From a virus (taxonomy: Duplodnaviria > Heunggongvirae > Uroviricota > Caudoviricetes), in IMG/VR virus record IMGVR_UViG_2923360383_000002: DNA of 35,428 nucleotides; one strand, 5' to 3'. The first letter of the stretch is position 1. Each line of letters opens with the position of its first letter. The position numbers and the translations under genes were made by a program. Positions 577 through 35,428 of this stretch are shown here, piece by piece. The notes beneath the pieces are model-generated. The model was not told the DNA's origin. It was given only the letters and a program-made list of their open reading frames with translations, and did not search any database.

Positions 577-2636
577 TCCACAACCTCCCCAAGCTGCGCA
601 TCTGTTAGCTCTTTATGCCAGAGACGAAAATTCCTCACATGCCCAAATAAATGGCGTAATCCTGCTGTAGTTTGTCCACCAATGCGAATGGTTGCTGTAC
701 TCCGGATATATTCCCATTTGGTTTTAGTTTCGCTGGATATACGCCCGTTACTTACTGCACATGTAGACTGATCTGACTTTACACGCATCCCCATAACCAT
801 TTTTTTCAACGATGCGTTTTCGTTAACACGTCTATTTGATCCACCAATATCGCAATAAGGAAATCCGTCTGGCCCATCTGCCGAAGATCCGAAGCCAAGA
901 ATAATAGCCGCTCCGGTTTGATGACCGCCGGTATCAAAAACACGTGGCGCTGCATTTGGCGTTTTATACCAGTTCTTATGTACCTCACAAAGAACCGTAA
1001 AAGGAAGATTATAAAGATTATTCTTAATCGGAACTGTAACCATATCGCTTGCGCGCGTCGCCGCCGTCGTTCCTGATATAATAAAAGATGATACACACGA
1101 ACCATCCTCAACCTGAGGGGTGGCCAGATAAATATAGTCACCAGATTCAACGACACCACCTTTTTTTGGTGCGTATTGTATTGCAGAGGTTATGTAAGTT
1201 TCTTTACTTGCTTGAATCGTTGCCTCTGCAAAAATCCAGCCCGTAACTTCATCTTTGTTAACTCGTGCAGTGAGCCTGTCGGCAGCTACACCGGTGATTT
1301 CAACCAATAAAGACCGCGTATTAACAATGGCATATCCAAGATTAGATGAAGCGCTGCCATCGAAGGCTTCAAACCTGATCCTTAACAGGAGTTCCAAATC
1401 CGTTTTAAATCTGCACGATGTCGTCACACACTTATTATCGCCTGATACATCGACAGCCCCCGAGGTTGAAACTACTGCCATATTAAGGGTTGTACTTTGC
1501 CCAATTAATGATTCATTACAAACAAACTTTCCATAAGTAAAACCAAAACTATCAGTTCCAACCTCAGCGACATTCATATTTGCAGATTTACCCCAAGAAG
1601 CTGGAGTTGCTGAATTCAACATGTAGTTGGTTCGCTGACCTTCAATCAATAAACCTTCTTTTTCAAATCGTGGCTCATTAATTTCCGCCGTTTTCAGTTC
1701 GCCAGATTTATTGATATATGTTGCCGTTGATGCGCGACTGAAATTAACCTGTTTATCACTGGCAACCTGAACCACATTATCACCAATCTTCACTTTTTTA
1801 TAACCCGGAGAATAGCCCGTAATCATATCCAGCGAATCATTAAAGGGTATCCACACATCCGGCAGCGGCTGTAAAACATATCTGTACGGCTCTGCTGTCT
1901 GGTTTGCGTATTCTCTGGCAGCATCTTCACTTGCTTTTGCTGCCGTCTGGCTTGCTGCCGATGCTTTCGCCGAGTTCGCCGCCGCTGTTTCGCTCACCTT
2001 TGCGTTGGCTTCACTGTCTTTGGCATTCGTCTCACTGGTTTTCGCTGCCGTCTGGCTGGATTTTGCGTTTTTTTCGCTGGCCTTTGTGGCTGTCTCGCTA
2101 TTTTTCGCGTTGGTTTCTGATTTTTTGGCTGCTGTCGCGGAGTTTGCCGATGCAGTCTGCGAGGCCGCTGCCGCCTGTGCGCTGTTAGCTGCATTCGTTT
2201 CTGAGGTTTTCGCCGCGTTCTTCGATGATGCCGCTGCAGTTTCGGATTTCTTTGCTGCCGCTGCGCTCTGTGATGATGCTCCGGCATGACGTGCCACTTC
2301 ATTCACCATCAGCTCAAAACGGCGCAGTGCCTCCGGACGGGCATCATCCTCCGTCATGGCACCGAGAAAATCATTCAGCGTACCTGGTCTGGAACCTTCA
2401 TAGACGGTAATGGTCCCGGCATGTGAAGGTGGAAAACCTTCAACCAGCAGGGTGACGCTGTACTGGCCATACTCAACATCCATGCTGTAACGCCCGGCTT
2501 CATCAGGATTTTCAGAGGCCACCGTGTTCACCAGTACCGTGGTGCTGTTACGCTTTGCCTTCAGTTGAATAGTGCAGTTCTGTATTGGTTTTCCCGCACC
2601 ATCTTTCAGCACACCTGAGATTTTTACTGCTGCCAT
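573..2636 (-). CDS. stf: Side tail fibre protein (Stf-like) with lambda-Stf-type N-terminus, A/S/T/K-rich repeat shaft and a divergent C-terminal domain
   Basis: N-terminus MAAVKISGVLKDGAGKPIQNCTIQLKAKRNSTTV...YSMDVEYGQYSV closely matches lambda Stf; likely start is ATG at 2636 with GGAG RBS (the track start at 2642 is a GTG). Confidence 0.85.
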   Translation of the reverse strand: MAAVKISGVLKDGAGKPIQNCTIQLKAKRNSTTVLVNTVASENPDEAGRYSMDVEYGQYSVTLLVEGFPPSHAGTITVYEGSRPGTLNDFLGAMTEDDARPEALRRFELMVNEVARHAGASSQSAAAAKKSETAAASSKNAAKTSETNAANSAQAAAASQTASANSATAAKKSETNAKNSETATKASEKNAKSSQTAAKTSETNAKDSEANAKVSETAAANSAKASAASQTAAKASEDAAREYANQTAEPYRYVLQPLPDVWIPFNDSLDMITGYSPGYKKVKIGDNVVQVASDKQVNFSRASTATYINKSGELKTAEINEPRFEKEGLLIEGQRTNYMLNSATPASWGKSANMNVAEVGTDSFGFTYGKFVCNESLIGQSTTLNMAVVSTSGAVDVSGDNKCVTTSCRFKTDLELLLRIRFEAFDGSASSNLGYAIVNTRSLLVEITGVAADRLTARVNKDEVTGWIFAEATIQASKETYITSAIQYAPKKGGVVESGDYIYLATPQVEDGSCVSSFIISGTTAATRASDMVTVPIKNNLYNLPFTVLCEVHKNWYKTPNAAPRVFDTGGHQTGAAIILGFGSSADGPDGFPYCDIGGSNRRVNENASLKKMVMGMRVKSDQSTCAVSNGRISSETKTKWEYIRSTATIRIGGQTTAGLRHLFGHVRNFRLWHKELTDAQLGEVVE
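1900..2290. repeat. Imperfect tandem low-complexity repeats inside stf (encode AAKTSETNAKNSETA-type shaft)
   Basis: Reiterated gctgccg/ttttcgc-type nucleotide units; all three overlapping track ORFs here show repetitive translations. Confidence 0.6.
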
Positions 2637-2647
2637 ATCCACTCCAC

Positions 2648-2673
2648 AAAAAAGCCCGCCTGAACCGGCGGGC
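2648..2673 (-). terminator. Intrinsic terminator between lom and stf
   Basis: On the minus strand, hairpin GCCCGCC-ggttca-GGCGGGC followed by TTTTTT. Confidence 0.6.
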
Positions 2674-2700
2674 TGTCATAACACTGTGTTACCTGGCTAA

Positions 2701-3300
2701 TCAGAATTTATAACCGACACCCACGATGAAACCGTCAGTGCGCCAGTCGCCACTGCCGGAGCCTTCATAAGCAATATCAATGGCCACGGATTCGGTCGGG
2801 TTAAACTGCACGCCAGCCCCCCACGCCAGAGAGGTATTGCTGTGGCGACCGTCATCACTTCCGGTCAGCACATCGTGCGTATCCCCCTTGTTGTCGGTCA
2901 CCTGAAGATAATCCCCGGAAAAAGTCGACACACGGCTGTAAGTCACACCCGCGATCGCATACGCGCTGAACCATTCATTCACGCGCACAGATGGCCCCGC
3001 CATCACGCTGAACCAGCGGTTACGCACAGAATCCTCATGCCAGCGGGTATCGCTGTAGTGCGTTTTTTTCTCATCTTCAGCATTGGCATAACTGAAGGAC
3101 GTAATCAGCCCCAGTGTGTCCGTAAACTCATAACGGTATTTCACGTTAATCCCGTTCAGATTATCGCTGCCGGGAGCGTTCGTACGGGCATGAAGATACC
3201 CTGCGCTCAGTGTGGACTGATGTTCAGACGCCCATGCAGGCGCACCGGATACGGACAGACAGATGGCTGCGGACAAAATGGCTGCACAAACTTTACGCAT
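2701..3300 (-). CDS. lom: Outer membrane protein Lom (Ail/Lom family)
   Basis: Translation has signal peptide and C-terminus IAYEGSGSGDWRTDGFIVGVGYKF matching lambda Lom; position between J and stf as in lambda. Confidence 0.9.
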   Translation of the reverse strand: MRKVCAAILSAAICLSVSGAPAWASEHQSTLSAGYLHARTNAPGSDNLNGINVKYRYEFTDTLGLITSFSYANAEDEKKTHYSDTRWHEDSVRNRWFSVMAGPSVRVNEWFSAYAIAGVTYSRVSTFSGDYLQVTDNKGDTHDVLTGSDDGRHSNTSLAWGAGVQFNPTESVAIDIAYEGSGSGDWRTDGFIVGVGYKF

Positions 3301-3367: not shown

Positions 3368-6300
3368 TCAGCTAATCGTGATGCCTGCAGTGGCTTTCTT
3401 CATCACAACAACCAGCAAATCGCTGATACTTGCTGTGGGATACCAGCCATTTACCCACCATGCTGATACAGAAAACTCCAGCGTCATGTGGCCGCGACCA
3501 GCAGGCATATCAATAACACCACTGTAAACCAGCGTATTATCCATCGCGGTACGGTTATAAATTTCAGCACCGTTTTTCTTCACTATCAGGCGGCATGACG
3601 AATAAGTATCGCTGTTCTCCCGCTCATGTCTGGCACCGCTGAAAGCCACCGCCGGAATAACAATCTGCCGGTTAAACGGCTGATCGTCATAAACCCTGAC
3701 GGTAATGGTTCCTGATGGCCAACGCTCCGGTGCACGGGAGTCACGGGGGAAAGCCTTACCCACTGTTTTAACGAGATCGCCTTCAATCTGGTTTGCAGAC
3801 AGTTTCCCTCTGATGACACAGTTCTCGTTAATGGTGACATTATTGAGCGTGCCGGTATTCGCCGTGATGGCTCCACTGATATCCGCATTGCGGGCTGTCA
3901 GCCTGCCATCCGGCGTCAGGGAAAACGTCGGAGGATTGCCGGATGACGTGATGCTCACCGCAAACAGTCGCTTCAGGAACACGTCGTTCATGAACAGCTG
4001 ATTCCCCTGCGCCACAAACAGCGGCGTGGTGTTGCCGTTCTCCGGGGTAATCATCGCGATACGGTCCGCCTGCAGCAGAATACTGCTCAGGGTCTGACCA
4101 TCAACATCCTCAATCCCCGCGCCAATCCCGGCCACATAGGGAATACCGTTTTTTGTTTTCTGCACCTTCAGCATATACATGGCATTCAGCTCATTGCGCG
4201 TGTCTGACTGAACCCGCTGGATTTGCTGTATGGTCACGGCCTGGTCACCCAGCTTTTTATCCGTGGTCGAGGTAATTTCACTCCCTTTTTTATCCACGTA
4301 CTGGCGGACCTGTGCTATCTGTCGGGCGTTTTCTGACTGCCCCTGGCTGACAGTCTGTGAGATTTCACTGCTCACCCGGTCCACTTTCTGGCTCACCTGC
4401 GCGATGGCCAGTGTCTGGTCCTCATTCTTTTTCGCAACCAGCTGCGTGAGGCTGTTTTCCGCCTTCCCGATTTTCCGGGTCACTTCTGCGATATCCGTGT
4501 CCATCCGCTGACGGATGTCTTCTTCCAGTTGCGTGACCTCCGTACGCAGCGCTGAAGCATCAATGCGCTCTTTCAGTGCCTGGCCCAGAAGCGTCTCATC
4601 TATCAGCCCCCGGAAAATTTCCAGATACCCTTCACCATCATTGCTGGGCTGCCCGCTGGCTTCCACAAAAGCAGATTTTCCCACCAGGTTGACGCTTCGC
4701 ACGTAAAACCAGAAATCCGTCCCCGGCTTAATCCGGCTCCCCTGGACAGTCCACTGACTGCCGGTCCCCAGATAACGGGCAGATTTTTCCACCTGTGCCG
4801 TGTTCGTGATGCGTTTTTCTGAGAACCAGAATTCAAACTGTACCGTCGGGTCATACACCGCAAGACGCGGGACCGCCGTTATCTGAAAATACCCCGGCGT
4901 CAGCTCAATCCGAGACGGCGCTGCCGGTGCGGCAATCCGGAACGATACCGATGCCGGATCGCCCTGCTGCCCCCACGCATTTACTGCCCGGACTGTCAGC
5001 GTGTACCGCCCCAGCGCCAGTTGCGTGAAGCGGTATGTGGTTTCCGTCGTCCGGGCCGTGCTGACCAGCCGCTCACTGCCGTCATCCGCTGCCACGGTCA
5101 GGCGAAGCATAAAGCTCACGCCCTTCACCACCTTCGGCGTGTCCCAGCGCGCCAGCACCTGATATTCCCCGCTGTCTGCGGTAACTTCGGCGGTCAGGTG
5201 CTGCACCGCTGGCGGCGTGACACCATTCACCGTGCCGCTCTGGTCGCCGTCAAAGTGCGCCCCGTTATCCACGATGGCCTCTTTTGCCGGTACATGCTGT
5301 ACGGCGGTGATGGCATACGTACCGTCGTCATTCTCACGGATACTCACACAGCGGAACAGGCGCTGGCGCAGCGTCGGCAGCTTCAGCCCCCACACGCTGT
5401 ATCCGGCAACGCCGTCAGGAACACGGCTCACTTTCACCTTCACACCGTCGGTGACGGACTGGACCTCCACGCTCACCGGATTACCCTGCCCGTCAACCAG
5501 GCTTATCAGAGTGGTGCCGGAGGATGGCAGCGTGATTTCACGGTCGAGCGTCAGCGTCCGGGTCTGGCTGTTTACCGCCAGCACGCGCCCGCCGGTGCTG
5601 ATACCGGCATAGTCATCATCGCAGATTTCAATGACATCGCCCGGTACATGGCGAAGCCCTTCGGCACCCACGCTGAAGTCCACGGTCTGCGTTTCCAGCA
5701 GTTCCGTTTTAATCAGCCACAGCCCGGCGCGGTGCGCCTGCCCCCGGCTGGTACAGCCAAAGGCATCCATCTTCGTGACGTTACGACCGTAACGGGCAAT
5801 GGCCTGCGTATCTTCAACAAGCTCTGTCGCCGTCTCCCAGCCGTTATCCGGGTCAATCCAGTTCACCTCAACGGCATTATGGCGGTCCTTCAGGGCGCTG
5901 AAGCTGTAGCGGAACGGCGCGCCATCATCCGGCATCACCACATTACTGCGGTTATAGGTCCACACCTTATCCGACGGTCGGTCCTGCACGAACGTCAGCG
6001 TCTGCCCGTTCCATACCGGCATACAACGCATCGCCGAGCAGAAATCACTGAGAACATCCCACGCCTTACGCTGTGTGGTCAGCCAGGCATTACAGGTGAT
6101 GCGCGGCTCCGTGCCACCAAAGCCATCCGGCACCGACTGGTCGCAATACTGGCCGATGACATACAGCGCCCATTTATCCACATCCGCCGCACCAAGACGT
6201 TTCCCCATGCCGTAGCGCGGATGGGTCAGCATATCCCACAGACACCAGGCCATGTTGTTGCTGTATGCTGGCTTAAACGTTCCGTCCCAGATACCGCTGT

Positions 6301-28654: not shown

Positions 28655-28933
28655 TTACCTCCAGATGCGTTGCTGGAATGTGCGGGACGGACGCGGTGGG
28701 CGCTCGGAGTACGGCAGCCTGACGTAGATTATCCAGTGACGATAATCGAGGCTGAGGGCTTTCTTAACCTCGTATCCACGCCTGCGGTAACACTGAATTA
28801 TCCATTCAGCCTGCTCTTCAGTGCATGGAGGATGCTGGAACCAGTCTGATTTGAATGCGTGAAAACGCCGTCCGCACCTACTGGCAAAGACGGCAGAATC
28901 ATTAGAATTGTGTAATTTGGTATCGTGCGCCAT
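28655..28933 (-). CDS. Hypothetical protein (about 92 aa from MAHDTKL; track ORF extends to 29062)
   Basis: ORF between hok and the DUF968 gene; start uncertain. Confidence 0.4.
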   Translation of the reverse strand: MAHDTKLHNSNDSAVFASRCGRRFHAFKSDWFQHPPCTEEQAEWIIQCYRRRGYEVKKALSLDYRHWIIYVRLPYSERPPRPSRTFQQRIWR

Positions 28934-32319: not shown

Positions 32320-33282
32320 TCACCCCCTGAATCCCGGCGGTATTTCAGTGTCCGGTTCAGAAATGTGATTCACGCAACGCTGCGCAGGCGAACGCCCCAG
32401 GCGGATAACCAGTTCATCCCATTTTTCCCGGAGTTTTGCCGGACTCATGATGTTTTTTACCCAGAACGAATCCCGCTGGAGACGCCCAAACATTTCACAA
32501 ATTTGTCTGTGAGTTCTGCCATCCAGCATCCGCATTGTGCGAACGTCATTGGCCCATGCTGTCCAGTTGGGTTCTTTCGGTCTAGTGATCTCGCCATCAT
32601 CGCTGGCCGCCTGCTCGTAAAGACTCACGATTCGTCCCCAGATCCACTGTGCGCACACCAAATCTTCCTGACTTCCCCACTGGCGTTTTTTCGCACTGAA
32701 CACAACCGCGTCAGGGTGTCGGGTTAAAAAATCCTGTTCAGCCGTCTGCGGGTCCGGTTGCGAAGCGTCCGGACAAGAAGATCTTTTATCTGACGGATCA
32801 GGTTTTAATACTGACGGATCGGGGTCAATCATCGCCCCCCTAATCGGCAGTTTTTTATCAACAGTTGATCCATCAAAATTTGACGGGTCAACCGTTGAGG
32901 GGTCAATATTTGACGGGTCAACTGTTAACGGGTCATTTTTTGCCGGGCTAATTTTTCTTTTCGGTTTATATGACTCACGCGCCGCCGCCGCAGCTGCTTC
33001 GAGTTTTTCCACATTAAGCCGATAGATATTGCTTACATTACGCCCACCGACCTTACGCTCTTCCTTCGTCAGCCAGCCCTCTTTCGCCAGTTCTGCAATA
33101 GCCGATTTCACTGTGGATTCACTTCTTGCACCGATCTGACGCCGGATAGTTTCAATGGCAGGCCATGACACGCCCTCGTCATTGCTGTAGTCTGCAAGAC
33201 GGGCCATAACCGCCACCCTGGATAAGATCATGCCGGTGAAGGCGCACCCTTCCCAGACAAGACCATGAAGCTTGCTGCTCAT
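32320..33282 (-). CDS. Replication initiator (O-like / Rac YdaU-like) with N-terminal winged helix and internal repeat peptide
   Basis: Start taken at ATG 33282 with GGGGG RBS; repeated DPSNIDPSTVDPSNFDGSTVD segment is encoded by the iteron DNA. Confidence 0.7.
   Translation of the reverse strand: MSSKLHGLVWEGCAFTGMILSRVAVMARLADYSNDEGVSWPAIETIRRQIGARSESTVKSAIAELAKEGWLTKEERKVGGRNVSNIYRLNVEKLEAAAAAARESYKPKRKISPAKNDPLTVDPSNIDPSTVDPSNFDGSTVDKKLPIRGAMIDPDPSVLKPDPSDKRSSCPDASQPDPQTAEQDFLTRHPDAVVFSAKKRQWGSQEDLVCAQWIWGRIVSLYEQAASDDGEITRPKEPNWTAWANDVRTMRMLDGRTHRQICEMFGRLQRDSFWVKNIMSPAKLREKWDELVIRLGRSPAQRCVNHISEPDTEIPPGFRG
32790..32940. repeat. Iteron-like direct repeats (candidate origin of replication) inside the initiator gene
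   Basis: At least six copies of a TGACGG(A/G)TCA-like unit, followed by an AT-rich stretch at about 32934-32970. Confidence 0.55.
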
Positions 33283-33304
33283 AAAACCCCCGAACACCGT
33301 GCTT

Positions 33305-33730
33305 TTAGTGCATCACCACAGCATTCCCTGCCGGGCCGCCGCGATTCATCTGGTCATACAAAACAACCGCTGACGCAACAAAATCATCGACATCCTTCAC
33401 CAGCCGATCCCTCCGTTCGACGATCTCACGGTAATATTCAGAACTGTGGCTGCGCATACGGGCCACCAGCAAAGGCGGCATCGCCTTTTCGATCGCCGGT
33501 AACAGAGCCTGCATTTTTTCAACAGCATCAGGGGTGTCTTTATCCAGCCAACGGAAAATTTTCTGGGTATTACGGGCCAGGGCTTCCGGATGGCTGTCGT
33601 CATACAGTTCCGGGAACGTCATTCCCAGCTCGAAATACGCTTTGGTAATTTTCGCAGCCGGTACTTTTTCGCCGTCCGGATGCGCCCAGGCATTCATCGC
33701 CATGCGGATGTGTTCATGCTTGATTTTCAT
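33305..33730 (-). CDS. YdaT-like protein (CII-position regulator/toxin family of Rac-type prophages)
   Basis: Starts MKIKHEHI; start overlaps the Cro-like stop (ATGA). Confidence 0.5.
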   Translation of the reverse strand: MKIKHEHIRMAMNAWAHPDGEKVPAAKITKAYFELGMTFPELYDDSHPEALARNTQKIFRWLDKDTPDAVEKMQALLPAIEKAMPPLLVARMRSHSSEYYREIVERRDRLVKDVDDFVASAVVLYDQMNRGGPAGNAVVMH

Positions 33731-33981
33731 GAATCAACTCCCATCAGCTTTTTCGTAGTAGTTTTATTCCTGCCAATAGTTAAAATTGCATCGGCAGAAA
33801 ATAATCCGTTTGATGCAAGAGCGATTTTTTCAGCGTAATTTGTTTCGCCGGTATATTCTGTGCGAGGCAATTTTCCGTTATCCATCCATTTATAGATTGC
33901 TCTTTGGCTGACACCACAAACGTCGGCCACAACAGCAACGCGAACAGTTTTGATTACATCTTCAAGTGTTTTCTGGTTCAT
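33727..33981 (-). CDS. Cro-like / YdaS-like HTH regulator
   Basis: Start ATG 33981 with GAGGGTG RBS (MNQKTLEDV...); HTH-like VCGVSQRAIYKWMDNGKLP; divergent from the repressor gene. Confidence 0.65.
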   Translation of the reverse strand: MNQKTLEDVIKTVRVAVVADVCGVSQRAIYKWMDNGKLPRTEYTGETNYAEKIALASNGLFSADAILTIGRNKTTTKKLMGVDS

Positions 33982-34060
33982 ATCACCCTCACAATGTGAA
34001 CTTTGAGTACATGCTATAACAGAACTGACAGTACATTCAAGAGCGAATATCATTGAACTT
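33982..34060. promoter_or_regulatory. Divergent immunity control region (operators/promoters between Cro-like and repressor genes)
   Basis: 79-bp intergenic region containing two AGTACAT copies. Confidence 0.5.
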
Positions 34061-34480
34061 ATGGTTCATGAAGATAAAGCGCGTAAAGAGTTCGCCAGTA
34101 GGCTTGCGCTAGCCTGTGAAAACGCTGGTTATGAACAACATGGAAGGCAGGCAGAAATTGCCCGTCGAATGAAATTAACACCAAAAGCGGTTAGCAAATG
34201 GTTTAATGGCGAAACAATTCCTCGCCGGGAGAAATTAAGGGAATTAGCAACACTAATAGGAACAACACCAACCTATCTTTTGGGAGAGGATACAGAAGAA
34301 AGTGGACAGGTACGTTTCTATCAGGAGTTAAATCCAAGACAAAAAATCATCATTGACCTTCTGGACGAGCTCCCTGACAGTGAGACAGATGAACTTTTAA
34401 AAACTCTTGAAGAGAAAAAACAGAAGTACAATGCAATTTACGAAGAGTTAGCACGAAAGAAAAAACAAAAAGCCTCTTAA
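34061..34480 (+). CDS. CI-like prophage repressor (XRE-family HTH, RacR-like; no peptidase domain)
   Basis: HTH-like GRQAEIARRMKLTPKAVSKWFNGETIP; divergent from the Cro-like gene. Confidence 0.7.
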   Translation: MVHEDKARKEFASRLALACENAGYEQHGRQAEIARRMKLTPKAVSKWFNGETIPRREKLRELATLIGTTPTYLLGEDTEESGQVRFYQELNPRQKIIIDLLDELPDSETDELLKTLEEKKQKYNAIYEELARKKKQKAS

Positions 34481-34916
34481 ACCAGCATAAATCCGGTAGC
34501 GCCTTCCTCCGGGTTTGTGCTTCACTTTATCCCATCTCATTTTTTTACACACAAAATGTACTAAAAGTACTTTACAAAAATGAACGCAAAGTACATTATA
34601 TACCTGCCACCCACCCCGCCCCACAGAATGCAGGGCAATACTTCGAGTTACCAGGCAGTGGTCAGGGGTTAAGTAGCCAGCCCGAGGCGTAAGAACATGA
34701 CGGCAGGGTTCAACTTTAATAACTATGCAGCAGGTTTTTGTTCCGCTACCCCGGCGTTAAGGGGAAACAGAGGATTTCTCAGTGGGCGAAGTCAAACATC
34801 AGAATGGAAGGCATCCCGGGATCGGCAAAGAAGCAGCAATGGCGCTTTATATTGACATCAGCGCCATTGCCGGACAGGTAAGAATTATCAGAGCGGTAAC
34901 TAAGCGGTATGCGCCT

Positions 34917-35117
34917 TTACTTCAGAAAGTCTCTGGTGAGTGCACCGAAGATATTGTCAACGATTTCGTCATCGAACTGCGAGGACTCATCTTCAGTTAC
35001 AAGGTGACCACAATTTTTGCAGATGGCTCCCGCGAAACTGTCAGAGCCCTGCGGCTTAAAGGATGTGTCAAAGACTTCGCCACCACATTCTGGGCAAGAA
35101 AACTTGATTGTACTCAT
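34917..35117 (-). CDS. Small zinc-ribbon protein (about 66 aa)
   Basis: CPECGG...CKNCG motif; ATG at 35117 with GAGAGGAAA RBS. Confidence 0.45.
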   Translation of the reverse strand: MSTIKFSCPECGGEVFDTSFKPQGSDSFAGAICKNCGHLVTEDESSQFDDEIVDNIFGALTRDFLK

Positions 35118-35209
35118 AACCAATTTCCTCTCGAGTAACAGACCCCTCAGAGGATACCACCTCGCCTGACGTGGTTAAAAGCAGGCAACGCTAACCACAA
35201 GGAGCCGAC

Positions 35210-35428
35210 ATGCAGAAACGAGAACCCGTCATCATCGCGCCAGACTATACCGATGATGAACTTTATGAGTGGATGCGCCAGAAAATTAATGCAGCGCAGG
35301 ATCTGAAATGGGCCAATGAAGCCAGGGCTAAGCAGGCTGAAAATCTGTCCGCTCTGGAGCAGGATATCACCAATCTGGAAAAAGCAGCGGCATTAAGCAT
35401 TGCCAGAATGATTACATACCCGCGTTAA
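35210..35428 (+). CDS. Hypothetical protein (72 aa)
   Basis: Complete ORF ending at the window edge, preceded by AAGGAG; no family recognised. Confidence 0.35.
   Translation: MQKREPVIIAPDYTDDELYEWMRQKINAAQDLKWANEARAKQAENLSALEQDITNLEKAAALSIARMITYPR

Follow-up and report, generated by a model that had tools for sequence, protein, structure and literature searches.

Short words of the form AGTACAT, or ATGTACT on the opposite strand, recur on both sides of a repressor gene in a 35,428-nucleotide stretch of viral DNA (the window), raising the question of whether they are operators and, if so, for which protein and at which promoters. Our analyses indicate, with a probability of about 90%, that the window belongs to a lambdoid prophage of E. 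coli, that positions 33982-34600 are its immunity region, and that five dyads in this region would bind the 139 aa repressor encoded there and very probably also the Cro-like protein. The operators are of a type already known from HK022 and 933W and the locus is, as far as sequence can tell, an ordinary lambdoid genetic switch. Although the arrangement is conceptually standard lambdoid biology, it provides a base-level switch map (OR1-3, OL1-2, PR, PRM, and PL) for a module that is widespread in E. coli genomes.

An earlier note on this DNA had pointed out the recurrence of these words in the immunity region and past the repressor gene, and four of the five copies in the window indeed lie within 33982-34600. 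The copies of AGTACAT, counted on both strands, are found at 34006-34012 (+), 34030-34036 (+), 34556-34562 (-), 34590-34596 (+), and 17376, and their number alone is not significant (5 vs. 2.35 +/- 1.53 expected; 10 of 100 shuffles reach 5). The repeated unit is longer, viz. a 17-bp dyad, ATGWAC-N5-GTWCAT, with the core GWAC-N5-GTWC, five copies of which (OR1-3 and OL1-2) flank the repressor gene. Since each of these sites is GWAC-N5-GTWC, the words AGTACAT and ATGTACT represent their outer half-sites; the interpretation of the words as operator half-sites can thus be retained, whereas the unit had been overlooked, being a dyad of 15-17 bp and not a 7-mer. In contrast to the count of the 7-mer, both the clustering and the occurrence of the longer unit reach significance. 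The core is present seven times in the 35,428 bases, five of the seven occurrences falling in a 600-bp stretch around the repressor gene, and the form GAAC-N4-AGTACAT has just three exact occurrences (33998, 34022, and 34582), besides one with a single mismatch at 34556 (-). A weight matrix constructed solely from the GenBank-annotated operators of HK022 and 933W, with no window sequence included, places the five sites at ranks 1-5 window-wide (OR3, 19.7 bits; OL2, 18.1; OR1, 17.6; OR2, 16.2; OL1, 12.8), the next match scoring 11.2 bits. Random Markov-1 windows contain 0.37 sites of at least 12.8 bits and their best matches average 12.1 bits, to which the lowest-scoring site, OL1, is the closest of the five. 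In OL1, 12 of the 12 specified dyad positions are present. The window-wide motif search that had been proposed as a check therefore gives a frequency within chance for the 7-mer and a cluster of top-ranked sites for the extended dyad.

Three of the dyads are located between the cro-like and repressor genes, where the earlier note had recorded two copies of AGTACAT; both are present, and a third site, over the start codon, had been missed. OR1 (GTGAACTTTGAGTACAT, 33996-34012) covers the start site predicted for the promoter PR near 34006 on the minus strand, has the position of HK022 oR1 with respect to the pR -10 element, and lies about 63 bp upstream of the repressor ATG, a position that is conserved in relatives. 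OR2 (CAGAACTGACAGTACAT, 34020-34036), 24 bp from OR1, is situated within the PR spacer and matches HK022 oR2 (GGAACTGATAGTACA). OR3 (TTGAACTTATGGTTCAT, 34053-34069) is 33 bp from OR2 and lies over the repressor start codon, as do HK022 oR3 and the OR3 of 933W-type phages over the cI ATG; the 15-mer TGAACTTATGGTTCA within it is identical to HK022 oR1 and oR3. The PR-like promoter for cro, read by eye on the minus strand (34013-34040), consists of a -35 element TTGAAT (34040-34035), a 16-bp spacer, and a -10 element TGt-TATAGC (34018-34013), and it was not called by the automatic scan because its weak -10 hexamer, TATAGC, ends in C. Its geometry is that of the annotated HK022 pR, in which oR2 and the -35 element share 1 nt and the -10 element is placed between oR2 and oR1, and relatives carry TTGCGT/CATAAT at the same place. 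A PRM-like promoter for the repressor (34025-34053, plus strand; CTGACA-17-TATCAT, 10/12 matches), which the promoter scan called independently, has its -35 element inside OR2, so that the repressor may either activate this promoter or act on it purely as a repressor, and a TAnnAT hexamer ends at the place of its -10 element in nearly all related loci. The start predicted for PRM, 34060-34061, is at or beside the A of the ATG, so that the repressor message would be leaderless; leaderless starts have been experimentally shown for paaR2 (PMC8630535).

The remaining two dyads lie 75-115 bp beyond the repressor stop. The first element of this cluster had been placed about 60 bp after the stop codon, but the distance is 74 bp (the stop ends at 34480 and AATGTACT starts at 34555), and the gap given as 22 nt between AGTACT (34566-34571) and AGTACATT (34590) is 18 nt. 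OL2 (ATGTACTAAAAGTACTT, 34556-34572) abuts the -35 element of a PL-like promoter, matches HK022 oL2 (TGTACTAcTGGTACTT), and is conserved in relatives; OL1 (ATGAACGCAAAGTACAT, 34580-34596) occupies the spacer and -10 element of the same promoter and matches HK022 oL1. The two sites are 24 bp apart, as are OR1 and OR2, and a repeat finder reports copies 24 bp and 560 bp apart. The PL-like promoter itself (34571-34599, plus strand; TTTACA-17-CATTAT, 9/12 matches, predicted start near 34606) was likewise called by the scan and points away from the repressor gene into ydfC. The pL of HK022/HK75 is TTTACA-17-CATCAT and has the same overlaps, of 1 nt with oL2 and 2 nt with oL1. The suggestion of the earlier note that a second regulated target lies to the right of the repressor gene is supported by this geometry. 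This target is probably the leftward early (PL) operon, since the OL pair lies where K-12 Qin has dicBp and CP-933P-type phages have PL933P; dicBp is repressed by DicA (PMC10448788) and PL933P is repressed about 100-fold by PaaR2 and YdaS (PMC8630535).

The repressor gene (34061-34480, plus strand), annotated merely as "helix-turn-helix domain-containing protein," encodes a protein with an HK022/933W-type helix-turn-helix (Pfam HTH_3) followed by a DicA-like C-terminal domain. Over the N-terminal 80 aa, it shares 58% identity with HK022 CI and 51% with 933W CI. The recognition helix TPKAVSKWFNGE (TPKAVSKW) corresponds to SSKGVSKW in 933W, and residues K42, S45, K46, and W47 are invariant in the repressor alignment. 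In 933W, base contacts were modelled for S41, K42, and K46, and base preference or specific binding was confirmed to be lost in the S41A and K46A mutants (PMC3317979). The protein also shows 29% identity to K-12 DicA over 112 aa (residues 30-137, BLASTP E 5e-15), including the C-terminal half; it has no Peptidase_S24 match in Pfam and ends in the alignment where the S24 domains of the HK022, 933W, and Raoultella CI proteins begin. Hence, the DNA-recognition part is a member of the HK022/933W type, and the repressor as a whole is a domain chimera. A PDB sequence search with the repressor returned only the N-terminal domain of P22 C2 (E 0.006). The divergent cro-like gene (33727-33981, minus strand; 84 aa), with a GAGG Shine-Dalgarno sequence before its ATG, encodes a protein that aligns end to end with HK022 Cro at 58% identity. 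It is followed in the PR operon by a YdaT-family (CII-like) gene (33305-33730, minus strand; Pfam YdaT_toxin, E 2.8e-10; PHROG 163 "CII-like transcriptional activator," E 3e-48) and by replication genes, and a dicB- or kil-type left operon lies behind the repressor.

The comparison with HK022 and 933W makes use of operator data from GenBank features and citing papers, viz. record X16093 for the HK022/HK75 immunity region (cI, cro, oR1-3, oL1-3, pR, and pL; Oberto et al. 1989; Carlson and Little 1993, via PMC8053113) and, for OR1-3 and OL1-2 of 933W, Tyler et al. 2004 (via PMC3121763) and Bullwinkle et al. 2012 (PMC3317979). HK022 and the window share the half-site TGWAC, the 15-bp dyad, and the OR spacings of 24 and 33 bp, and their promoter/operator overlaps at pR and pL agree base for base. 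However, HK022 CI has a self-cleaving S24 C-terminal domain in place of the short DicA-like domain, and HK022 differs further in having an oL3, an OFR site downstream of cro, a lambda-type CII instead of YdaT, and a left operon of nun-cIII-kil instead of ydfC-dicF-dicB; no putL is annotated or was found in the window. The sites of 933W are also 15 bp long and rotationally symmetric, with G-(A/T)-A-C at positions 2-5 (PMC3317979); 933W likewise has no more than two OL sites, places the last of its three OR sites (OR3) over the cI start, and shares K42 and K46 in the recognition helix. It differs from the window in its preference for C at position 1 and in the S24 domain of its repressor, and a 933W-like phage carries the cargo gene stk between cI and OL. 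The earlier suggestion that the words serve a CI-like or Cro-like protein agrees with these correspondences in site sequence, spacing, promoter overlap, and protein homology. Binding itself, and the preference of each protein among the sites, are predicted by this homology. Pairwise cooperativity across the 24-bp spacing and looping between OL and OR may also occur by homology to HK022 CI, for which both have been shown (PMC8053113); the 933W repressor reportedly does not bind cooperatively to adjacent sites (PMC3317979), and the different C-terminal domain means that the properties of HK022 CI are not simply transferable.

A very unlikely alternative is that the sites are bound only by Cro or by the YdaT/CII-like protein, with the 139 aa protein recognizing some other sequence. 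Cro-like homologues are found at the same position in most of the related loci, so that co-occurrence by itself does not distinguish between Cro and the repressor, and the YdaT of CP-933P binds DNA in a sequence-specific manner (PMC9986795). However, two loci (L008 and L016) retain a three-site OR beside a repressor homologue where cro is replaced by an antiterminator Q gene, and the HK022, 933W, and Raoultella loci have the same operators but no YdaT. YdaT moreover recognizes a different sequence, TTGATT-N6-AATCAA (PMC9986795), for which inspection of the cro region by eye yielded one half-match only (TTGATTACATCTTCAAG, near 33950), whereas the 933W repressor, whose K42 and K46 are retained here, binds GWAC dyads in vitro, with a dependence on half-site positions 2-5 (G-W-A-C) in measurements on natural and consensus sites (PMC3317979). 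Binding by the repressor, very probably together with Cro, thus remains our favored explanation.

It is also highly improbable that the operators are relicts of a cryptic prophage whose switch no longer works. The related switches of Qin, Rac, and CP-933P reside in cryptic prophages (PMC10448788, PMC8630535), and in strain 94EC, which is 100% identical to the window over 33700-34700 and in which dicB, an exonuclease (recE), and an integrase follow beyond ydfC, the integrase gene is frameshifted and the left arm contains an IS1. On the other hand, the repressor ORF is intact, and of 5426 complete E. coli genomes, 1046 (about 19%) carry the module. It is also found, at 99.6% identity, in the deposited 46-kb genome of phage Tritos, which has DicF, DicB, exonuclease VIII, xis, and int. 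Among 51 close haplotypes, 3 of 40 core half-site positions are variable in comparison to 47 of 182 other non-coding positions, indicating that the core is preferentially conserved, and the DicA switch is functional even in cryptic Qin, where it is needed to silence dicB (PMC3441716). No paper on the Tritos immunity region was found, and a full-text literature search for the motif in the context of phage operators returned only unrelated primer matches.

Tritos is too similar to the window for footprinting by itself, and more distant homologues were therefore used, viz. 33 proteobacterial loci ranging from Escherichia to Vibrio, Haemophilus, Pseudomonas, and one Pseudooceanicola MAG, in which the repressor identity falls to 36-50%. 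These loci contain 165 core matches where 9 are expected, and only 15 of the matches are outside the OR/OL layout. A three-site OR at approximately -63, -39, and -6 is found in 29 of the 33 loci, and a downstream pair 24-25 bp apart in 24. Where cargo genes are inserted, HigBA in Salmonella and an AAA ATPase in Raoultella, the downstream pair has shifted along with the cargo, which is the behavior expected of OL. Two Firmicutes loci sharing only the peptide TPKAVSKW have zero core matches. An interpretation of the downstream pair mainly as an RNA hairpin or terminator, of a leftward transcript or of the repressor message, instead of as operators is scarcely credible in light of these results. 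A scan does report one terminator-like structure there, a minus-strand hairpin (34594-34567) whose stem of 10 pairs includes three G-C pairs and precedes a T run, but a single match is no more than chance (1.6 in shuffles), and the stem is simply the two GTAC-containing half-sites. The geometry of the downstream pair equals that of the annotated HK022 pL, oL1, and oL2. The cross-genus conservation, furthermore, resides in the half-sites and in the PL -35 and -10 elements at the fixed spacing, and not in a compensating stem. The chance recurrence of a short, functionless, AT-rich word in AT-rich intergenic DNA, which would be compatible with the whole-window count of the 7-mer, is of negligible probability given the clustering of the dyads, their top ranks in an independently derived matrix, and their constant offsets in 29 of 33 distant loci that are not near-identical copies.

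The region following the operator pair is common to prophages of other immunity types. Within the PL transcript leader (34600-34770, plus strand), homology to phage Evi, which has PaaR2/CP-933P-type immunity, starts at ATACC..ACCCACCCCGCCCC, directly after the PL -10 element, and homology to K-12 Qin resumes at GTTCCGCTACCCCGGCGTTAAGGGGAAA (34741-34768). The leader (34606-34775) does not fold more stably than shuffled sequences (z = +1.26), and an Rfam scan of 33500-35428 at E <= 1 gave no match, so that no known RNA element, e.g., of the put or nut family, was detected. Among the conserved genes of the leftward, dicB-type operon, ydfC (35210-35428, plus strand; RefSeq annotation of strain 94EC) comes first; it is nearly identical to K-12 ydfC.

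The gene order cro-like gene, short repressor, promoter, ydfC, dicF, and dicB is shared with K-12 Qin, as is the homologous C-terminal domain of DicA. In the window, ydfA and ydfB of Qin are replaced by a segment of about 440 bp, and the operators are unrelated to DicA Oc, TTGTTAGTCATAACTAACAA (PMC3441716); the flanks of K-12 dicA contain TGTTAGT-type sites and zero GWAC dyads. As the specificities of the two HTH domains differ, the module of the window is predicted to be heteroimmune with that of Qin. CP-933P (PaaR2/YdaS/YdaT) resembles the window in its short non-S24 repressor, its divergent Cro-like gene with YdaT, its probably leaderless repressor gene, its distal PL operators, which are repressed by both regulators, and the transcript leader that it shares after PL (PMC8630535). 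The similarity between the C-terminal domains of PaaR2 and the window repressor is weak (21% identity, E 7e-4), however, and the paaA2-parE2 cargo of CP-933P is absent from the window. The operators of CP-933P (GTTTAGTAA repeats) and of the RacR/YdaS switch of Rac (WTAGGC-n3-GCCTAW) both differ from those in the window, and the GWAC-N5-GTWC sites match none of the DicA (TTGTTAGT-N4-ACTAACAA), RacR, and PaaR2 operator types. RacR O3 overlaps its own ATG (PMC9638921), as OR3 does here. In overall build the repressor fits the short DicA/RacR/PaaR2/Gifsy type, the members of which are about 120-160 aa long and lack an S24 domain, with the HTH at the N-terminus and a helical part at the C-terminus. 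Gifsy repressors were considered as close relatives and rejected, no Gifsy record being among the phage matches of the Salmonella homologue.

On the basis of the HK022-like layout, the switch would operate as follows. A repressor dimer on OR1 would cover the start of PR and one on OR2 would fill the PR spacer, their joint occupancy shutting off cro, ydaT, and the replication genes. Cro, or the repressor itself when abundant, may act at OR3, which covers the start of the predicted leaderless message; in the latter case the repressor gene would be under negative autoregulation. At OL, 560 bp away, OL2 next to the PL -35 element and OL1 in its spacer and -10 element would, when occupied, shut off the early left operon, viz. 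ydfC and, beyond the window, dicF, dicB, the exonuclease gene, xis, and int. In many module-bearing genomes, toxic left operons of the dicF/dicB or kilR kind would be under the control of the module.

A more tentative idea, which we consider possible but doubtful, is that an ancient HK022-type cassette (HTH, three-site OR, two-site OL, and Cro) has been freely paired with different induction domains, here a non-cleavable DicA-like one, and that the repressor might read the operators of phages like HK022 and perhaps also those of Stx phages like 933W. Cassettes of this type are found in Enterobacteria, Vibrio, Pasteurellaceae, Pseudomonas, and an alphaproteobacterial MAG. If this idea is correct, SOS-insensitive cross-immunity or cross-regulation between prophages would result, with the cell-division inhibitors dicF and dicB coupled to the network. 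Cross-immunity with HK022-like and Stx phages and induction that is independent of SOS are predictions of the main reading, in which a repressor with a DicA-like C-terminal half would read HK022/933W-type operators. The absence of an S24 domain and the DicA-like C-terminal half suggest induction through an antirepressor rather than through RecA-stimulated cleavage, and by analogy with DicA/Rem and the Gifsy repressors this would be the most likely route. A tblastn search with K-12 Rem found no homologue in the window, and no convincing LexA box is present there, the two weak CTG-N10-CAG matches both lying within genes. The Rem position is occupied by a gene for a 92 aa protein.

Our analyses place the interval 33982-34600 inside the immunity region of a lambdoid E. 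coli prophage and support, from sequence comparison, the reading of five sites in it as HK022/933W-type operators located at the prophage OR and OL. A cro-like gene (33727-33981) and a ydaT-family gene (33305-33730), both on the minus strand, are transcribed leftward; the gene for a 139-aa helix-turn-helix repressor (34061-34480, plus strand) is transcribed rightward, with ydfC downstream of it (from 35210). The recurrence of AGTACAT described in the earlier note is confirmed: four of the five copies in the window lie within 33982-34600, as half-sites in a cluster of five dyads. Over the whole window, the total for this 7-mer alone is no higher than chance allows (5 against 2.35 expected; at least 5 copies in 10 of 100 shuffles). 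AGTACAT is a portion of a longer dyad, ATGWAC-N5-GTWCAT, and of the seven matches to its core, GWAC-N5-GTWC, in 35 kb, five lie at 33998, 34022, 34055, 34558 and 34582. Perfect matches to GAAC-N4-AGTACAT are found at 33998, 34022 and 34582, with a one-mismatch copy on the opposite strand at 34556, and a repeat finder separates the motif copies by 24 bp and 560 bp. The core matches define three predicted operators between cro and the repressor gene (viz. OR1, 33996-34012; OR2, 34020-34036; and OR3, 34053-34069, which covers the repressor ATG) and two downstream of the repressor gene (OL2, 34556-34572, and OL1, 34580-34596), and the start-to-start distance is 24 bp in both OR1/OR2 and OL2/OL1. 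The third intergenic site, OR3, had been overlooked in the earlier note; the downstream cluster begins 74 bp, not about 60 bp, past the repressor stop, and its gap is 18 nt, not 22.

A tblastn search of phage records with the first 80 residues of the repressor matched HK022 CI (58% identity), HK75 CI and 933W-type CI (51%), whose operators are annotated features in GenBank. Those of HK022/HK75 (oR1, TGAACTTATGGTTCA; oR2, GGAACTGATAGTACA; oR3, TGAACTTATGGTTCA, over the cI ATG; oL2, TGTACTAcTGGTACTT; oL1, TGAACTTTAgGTAC), those of 933W-like phages (OR1, CGTACTTTCAGTACG; OR2, TGAACTGAAAGTTTT; OR3, CGTACTCATGGTTCA; OL2, GTACCAATAGTTCTTG; OL1, TCGAACTATTGGTTCA) and the window sites are one and the same dyad, and the sequence of HK022 oR1 and oR3 is identical to window OR3. 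A weight matrix derived solely from these ten annotated operators gives its five highest scores in the window to the five sites (19.7, 18.1, 17.6, 16.2 and 12.8 bits; next 11.2), and random windows hold 0.37 sites scoring at least 12.8 bits, which supports the operator half-site reading. The ninth-best match (9.1 bits; CGTGCTTTTAGTGCA, 33298-33312) falls where the ydaT stop meets the start of the replication gene. It is reminiscent of the OFR operator, which in HK022 lies downstream of cro, but is probably due to chance, since its core is GTGC instead of GTAC. In HK022 (X16093), the pR -35 shares one base with oR2 and its -10 lies between oR2 and oR1, while the pL -35 shares one base with the distal oL and its -10 shares two with the proximal oL; all of these offsets recur in the window, in the predicted PR (minus strand; -35 TTGAAT, 34040-34035; 16-bp spacer; TGt-TATAGC, 34018-34013) and PL (plus strand; -35 TTTACA, 34571-34576; 17-bp spacer; CATTAT, 34594-34599), the latter also called by a promoter scan. 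Across genera, the five central bases of OR2 (34022-34034; CTGA-A/T/C-A) show an unusual conservation that the other operators lack at their centres. They coincide with the predicted PRM -35, so that occupancy of OR2 must somehow be linked to PRM activity.

The arrangement was compared across 33 proteobacterial loci with repressor homologues 36-100% identical (viz. from Shigella, Kluyvera, Klebsiella, Enterobacter, Brenneria, Pantoea, Photobacterium, Vibrio, Providencia, Volucribacter, Haemophilus, Pseudomonas, Gallibacterium, Salinicola, Avibacterium and a Pseudooceanicola MAG). These loci contain 165 core matches, against 9 expected, and only 15 of the 165 fall outside the OR and downstream-pair positions; a set of three sites, at roughly -63, -39 and -6 relative to the repressor ATG, is present in 29 loci, and a downstream pair with 24-25 bp spacing in 24. 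The core dyad is absent from two Firmicutes loci whose sole shared element is the peptide TPKAVSKW. The downstream pair lies 500-3100 bp from the repressor start, beyond variable cargo that includes a HigB/HigA toxin-antitoxin in Salmonella (L003 3553-4220), a possibly defence-related 480-aa AAA ATPase in Raoultella (L006 3808-5250) and the Ser/Thr kinase gene stk in a 933W-like phage (L129 1722-2768); this cargo slot corresponds to the position of rexAB in lambda, where OL likewise lies beyond these genes. Conserved promoter elements comprise TT(T/G)AC(A/T)-17-CAT(T/A)AT at PL and a CATAAT-like -10 between OR1 and OR2 at PR. In enterobacterial loci a TAnnAT hexamer ends 7 nt ahead of the repressor ATG, which predicts a leaderless repressor message. 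The lambda cI message is leaderless. For paaR2, a leaderless message has been shown experimentally (PMC8630535). Four Enterobacter-type loci (L008-L010 and L016; around 2440-3010 and 4440-5010) have the three-site OR and repressor adjoining antiterminator Q and lysis genes, with neither cro nor the downstream pair, and represent a different switch wiring on the same operators.

That the sites are relict operators is unlikely, because among 51 haplotypes of the E. coli module only 3 of 40 core half-site positions vary, against 47 of 182 other non-coding positions, and the module is carried by an intact phage, Tritos. Recognition by Cro only or by YdaT only is also improbable: L008 and L016 lack cro but retain the OR sites, HK022 and 933W lack YdaT but retain theirs, and YdaT recognises another sequence (PMC9986795). 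The downstream pair could be read as a terminator-like hairpin (34594-34567), but its stem is merely the two half-sites and a single such scan match does not exceed chance level. Chance recurrence of AGTACAT is excluded by the ranking from the independent matrix and by the recurrence of the same three-site OR across loci.

The proteins agree with an HK022/933W-type operator assignment. The affinity of the 933W repressor requires operator positions 2-5 (G, A/T, A, C), its modelled base contacts are S41, K42 and K46, and the K46A substitution abolishes specificity altogether (PMC3317979). Among the repressor homologues, the recognition helix TPKAVSKWFNGE is unchanged, as are K42 and K46 in the alignment with HK022 CI and 933W CI. 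The Cro-like protein shares 58% identity with HK022 Cro. Domain search and alignment found no S24 peptidase in the C-terminal half of the repressor, which aligns with K-12 DicA (29% identical over 112 residues, E 5e-15) and shows weak similarity to a PaaR2-type protein. Hence, the repressor is a chimera of an HK022-type DNA-binding domain and a DicA-type C-terminal domain. In homologues from Raoultella, Klebsiella, Enterobacter and Kluyvera prophages with the same operators (P0021, P0034, P0038; L006-L010, L013-L019), a DNA-binding domain 62-74% identical is fused to an S24 LexA-like peptidase domain; the induction domain is swapped and the DNA specificity retained.

Repressor dimers bound at OR1 and OR2 would occlude PR, and those at OL2 and OL1 would occlude PL, while OR3, over the PRM start, may serve autoregulation or be the preferred Cro site. 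The 24-bp spacing suggests HK022-like pairwise cooperativity, and looping between OL and OR across 560 bp may occur; HK022 CI loops OL and OR (PMC8053113) and PaaR2 forms octamers (PMC8630535). Since the HK022 C-terminal domain is unlike that of the window repressor, and binding by the 933W repressor is reportedly non-cooperative (PMC3317979), both may or may not apply here. As the repressor is without an S24 domain, induction by an antirepressor would be expected, as for DicA/Rem (PMC10448788) and the Gifsy repressors (PMC3121763). No antirepressor was identified in the window, including by comparison with Rem. A 92-aa protein (PHROG 1212; 28655-28933, minus strand), between hokD and a DUF968 gene, occupies the position of the antirepressor gene rem in K-12 Qin and has no sequence similarity to Rem.

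The second regulated target proposed to the right of the repressor gene is supported by the overlap of the downstream pair with the PL-like promoter, in HK022 pL geometry. The dicA-ydfA interval of K-12 Qin contains dicBp, a DicA-repressed promoter and the main one of the dicBF operon (PMC10448788); Qin and the window become homologous again at GTTCCGCTACCCCGGCGTTAAGGGGAAA (34741-34768). Phage Evi has PaaR2/CP-933P-type immunity with GTTTAGT-type operators and paaA2-parE2 cargo, and its homology to the window starts at ATACC..ACCCACCCCGCCCC, directly past the PL -10; PaaR2 and YdaS each repress PL933P about 100-fold (PMC8630535). By these comparisons, the downstream pair sits where the operators of a promoter belong that has a transcript leader common to prophages of different immunity, and the boundary of the immunity module falls at the predicted PL start site. 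The leader of about 135 nt right after PL (34600-34740) is 96-99% conserved in Evi, vB_EcoS-683R6 and other phages whose immunity modules are unrelated. No Rfam family matches it, its predicted fold is no more stable than those of shuffled sequences (z = +1.26), and it may be a processing or antitermination signal. The conserved, hairpin-like 34741-34768 element, the point at which left-operon homology resumes, is also present in Tritos, O157 NE1127 and K-12 Qin, where it closely precedes ydfA. Where Qin and Tritos have ydfA and ydfB, the window has some 440 bp (34770-35200) of ambiguous coding: RefSeq places on the minus strand a 66-aa 'ECs_2282 family putative zinc-binding protein' (68 aa, 34917-35123, in the ORF listing) with a promoter-like site of its own (35134-35107), convergent with PL, and the Evi annotation an overlapping plus-strand 118-aa ORF (34782-35138).

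The 1-kb core of the module (33700-34700) is present, at coverage of at least 80%, in 1046 of 5426 complete E. coli genomes, with 100% identity in the best-matching ones and 99.6% in the deposited phage Tritos. Past the window end, strain 94EC carries dicB, an exonuclease and an integrase, and Tritos carries DicF, DicB, exonuclease VIII, xis and int; in O157:H7 NE1127 a 97.2% identical immunity module lies ahead of a Rac-type left arm (ydaF, sieB, kilR, recE, recT). A literature search found no paper on this particular immunity module; its kind of operator has long been known. A 15-bp unit (TCAAC-NGTTGA-CGGG-like) is repeated in tandem five to six times at 32858-32947, within the replication-initiator gene (32320-33297, minus strand); the repeats look like origin iterons inside an O-like gene, as is the case for the origin iterons in lambda O.
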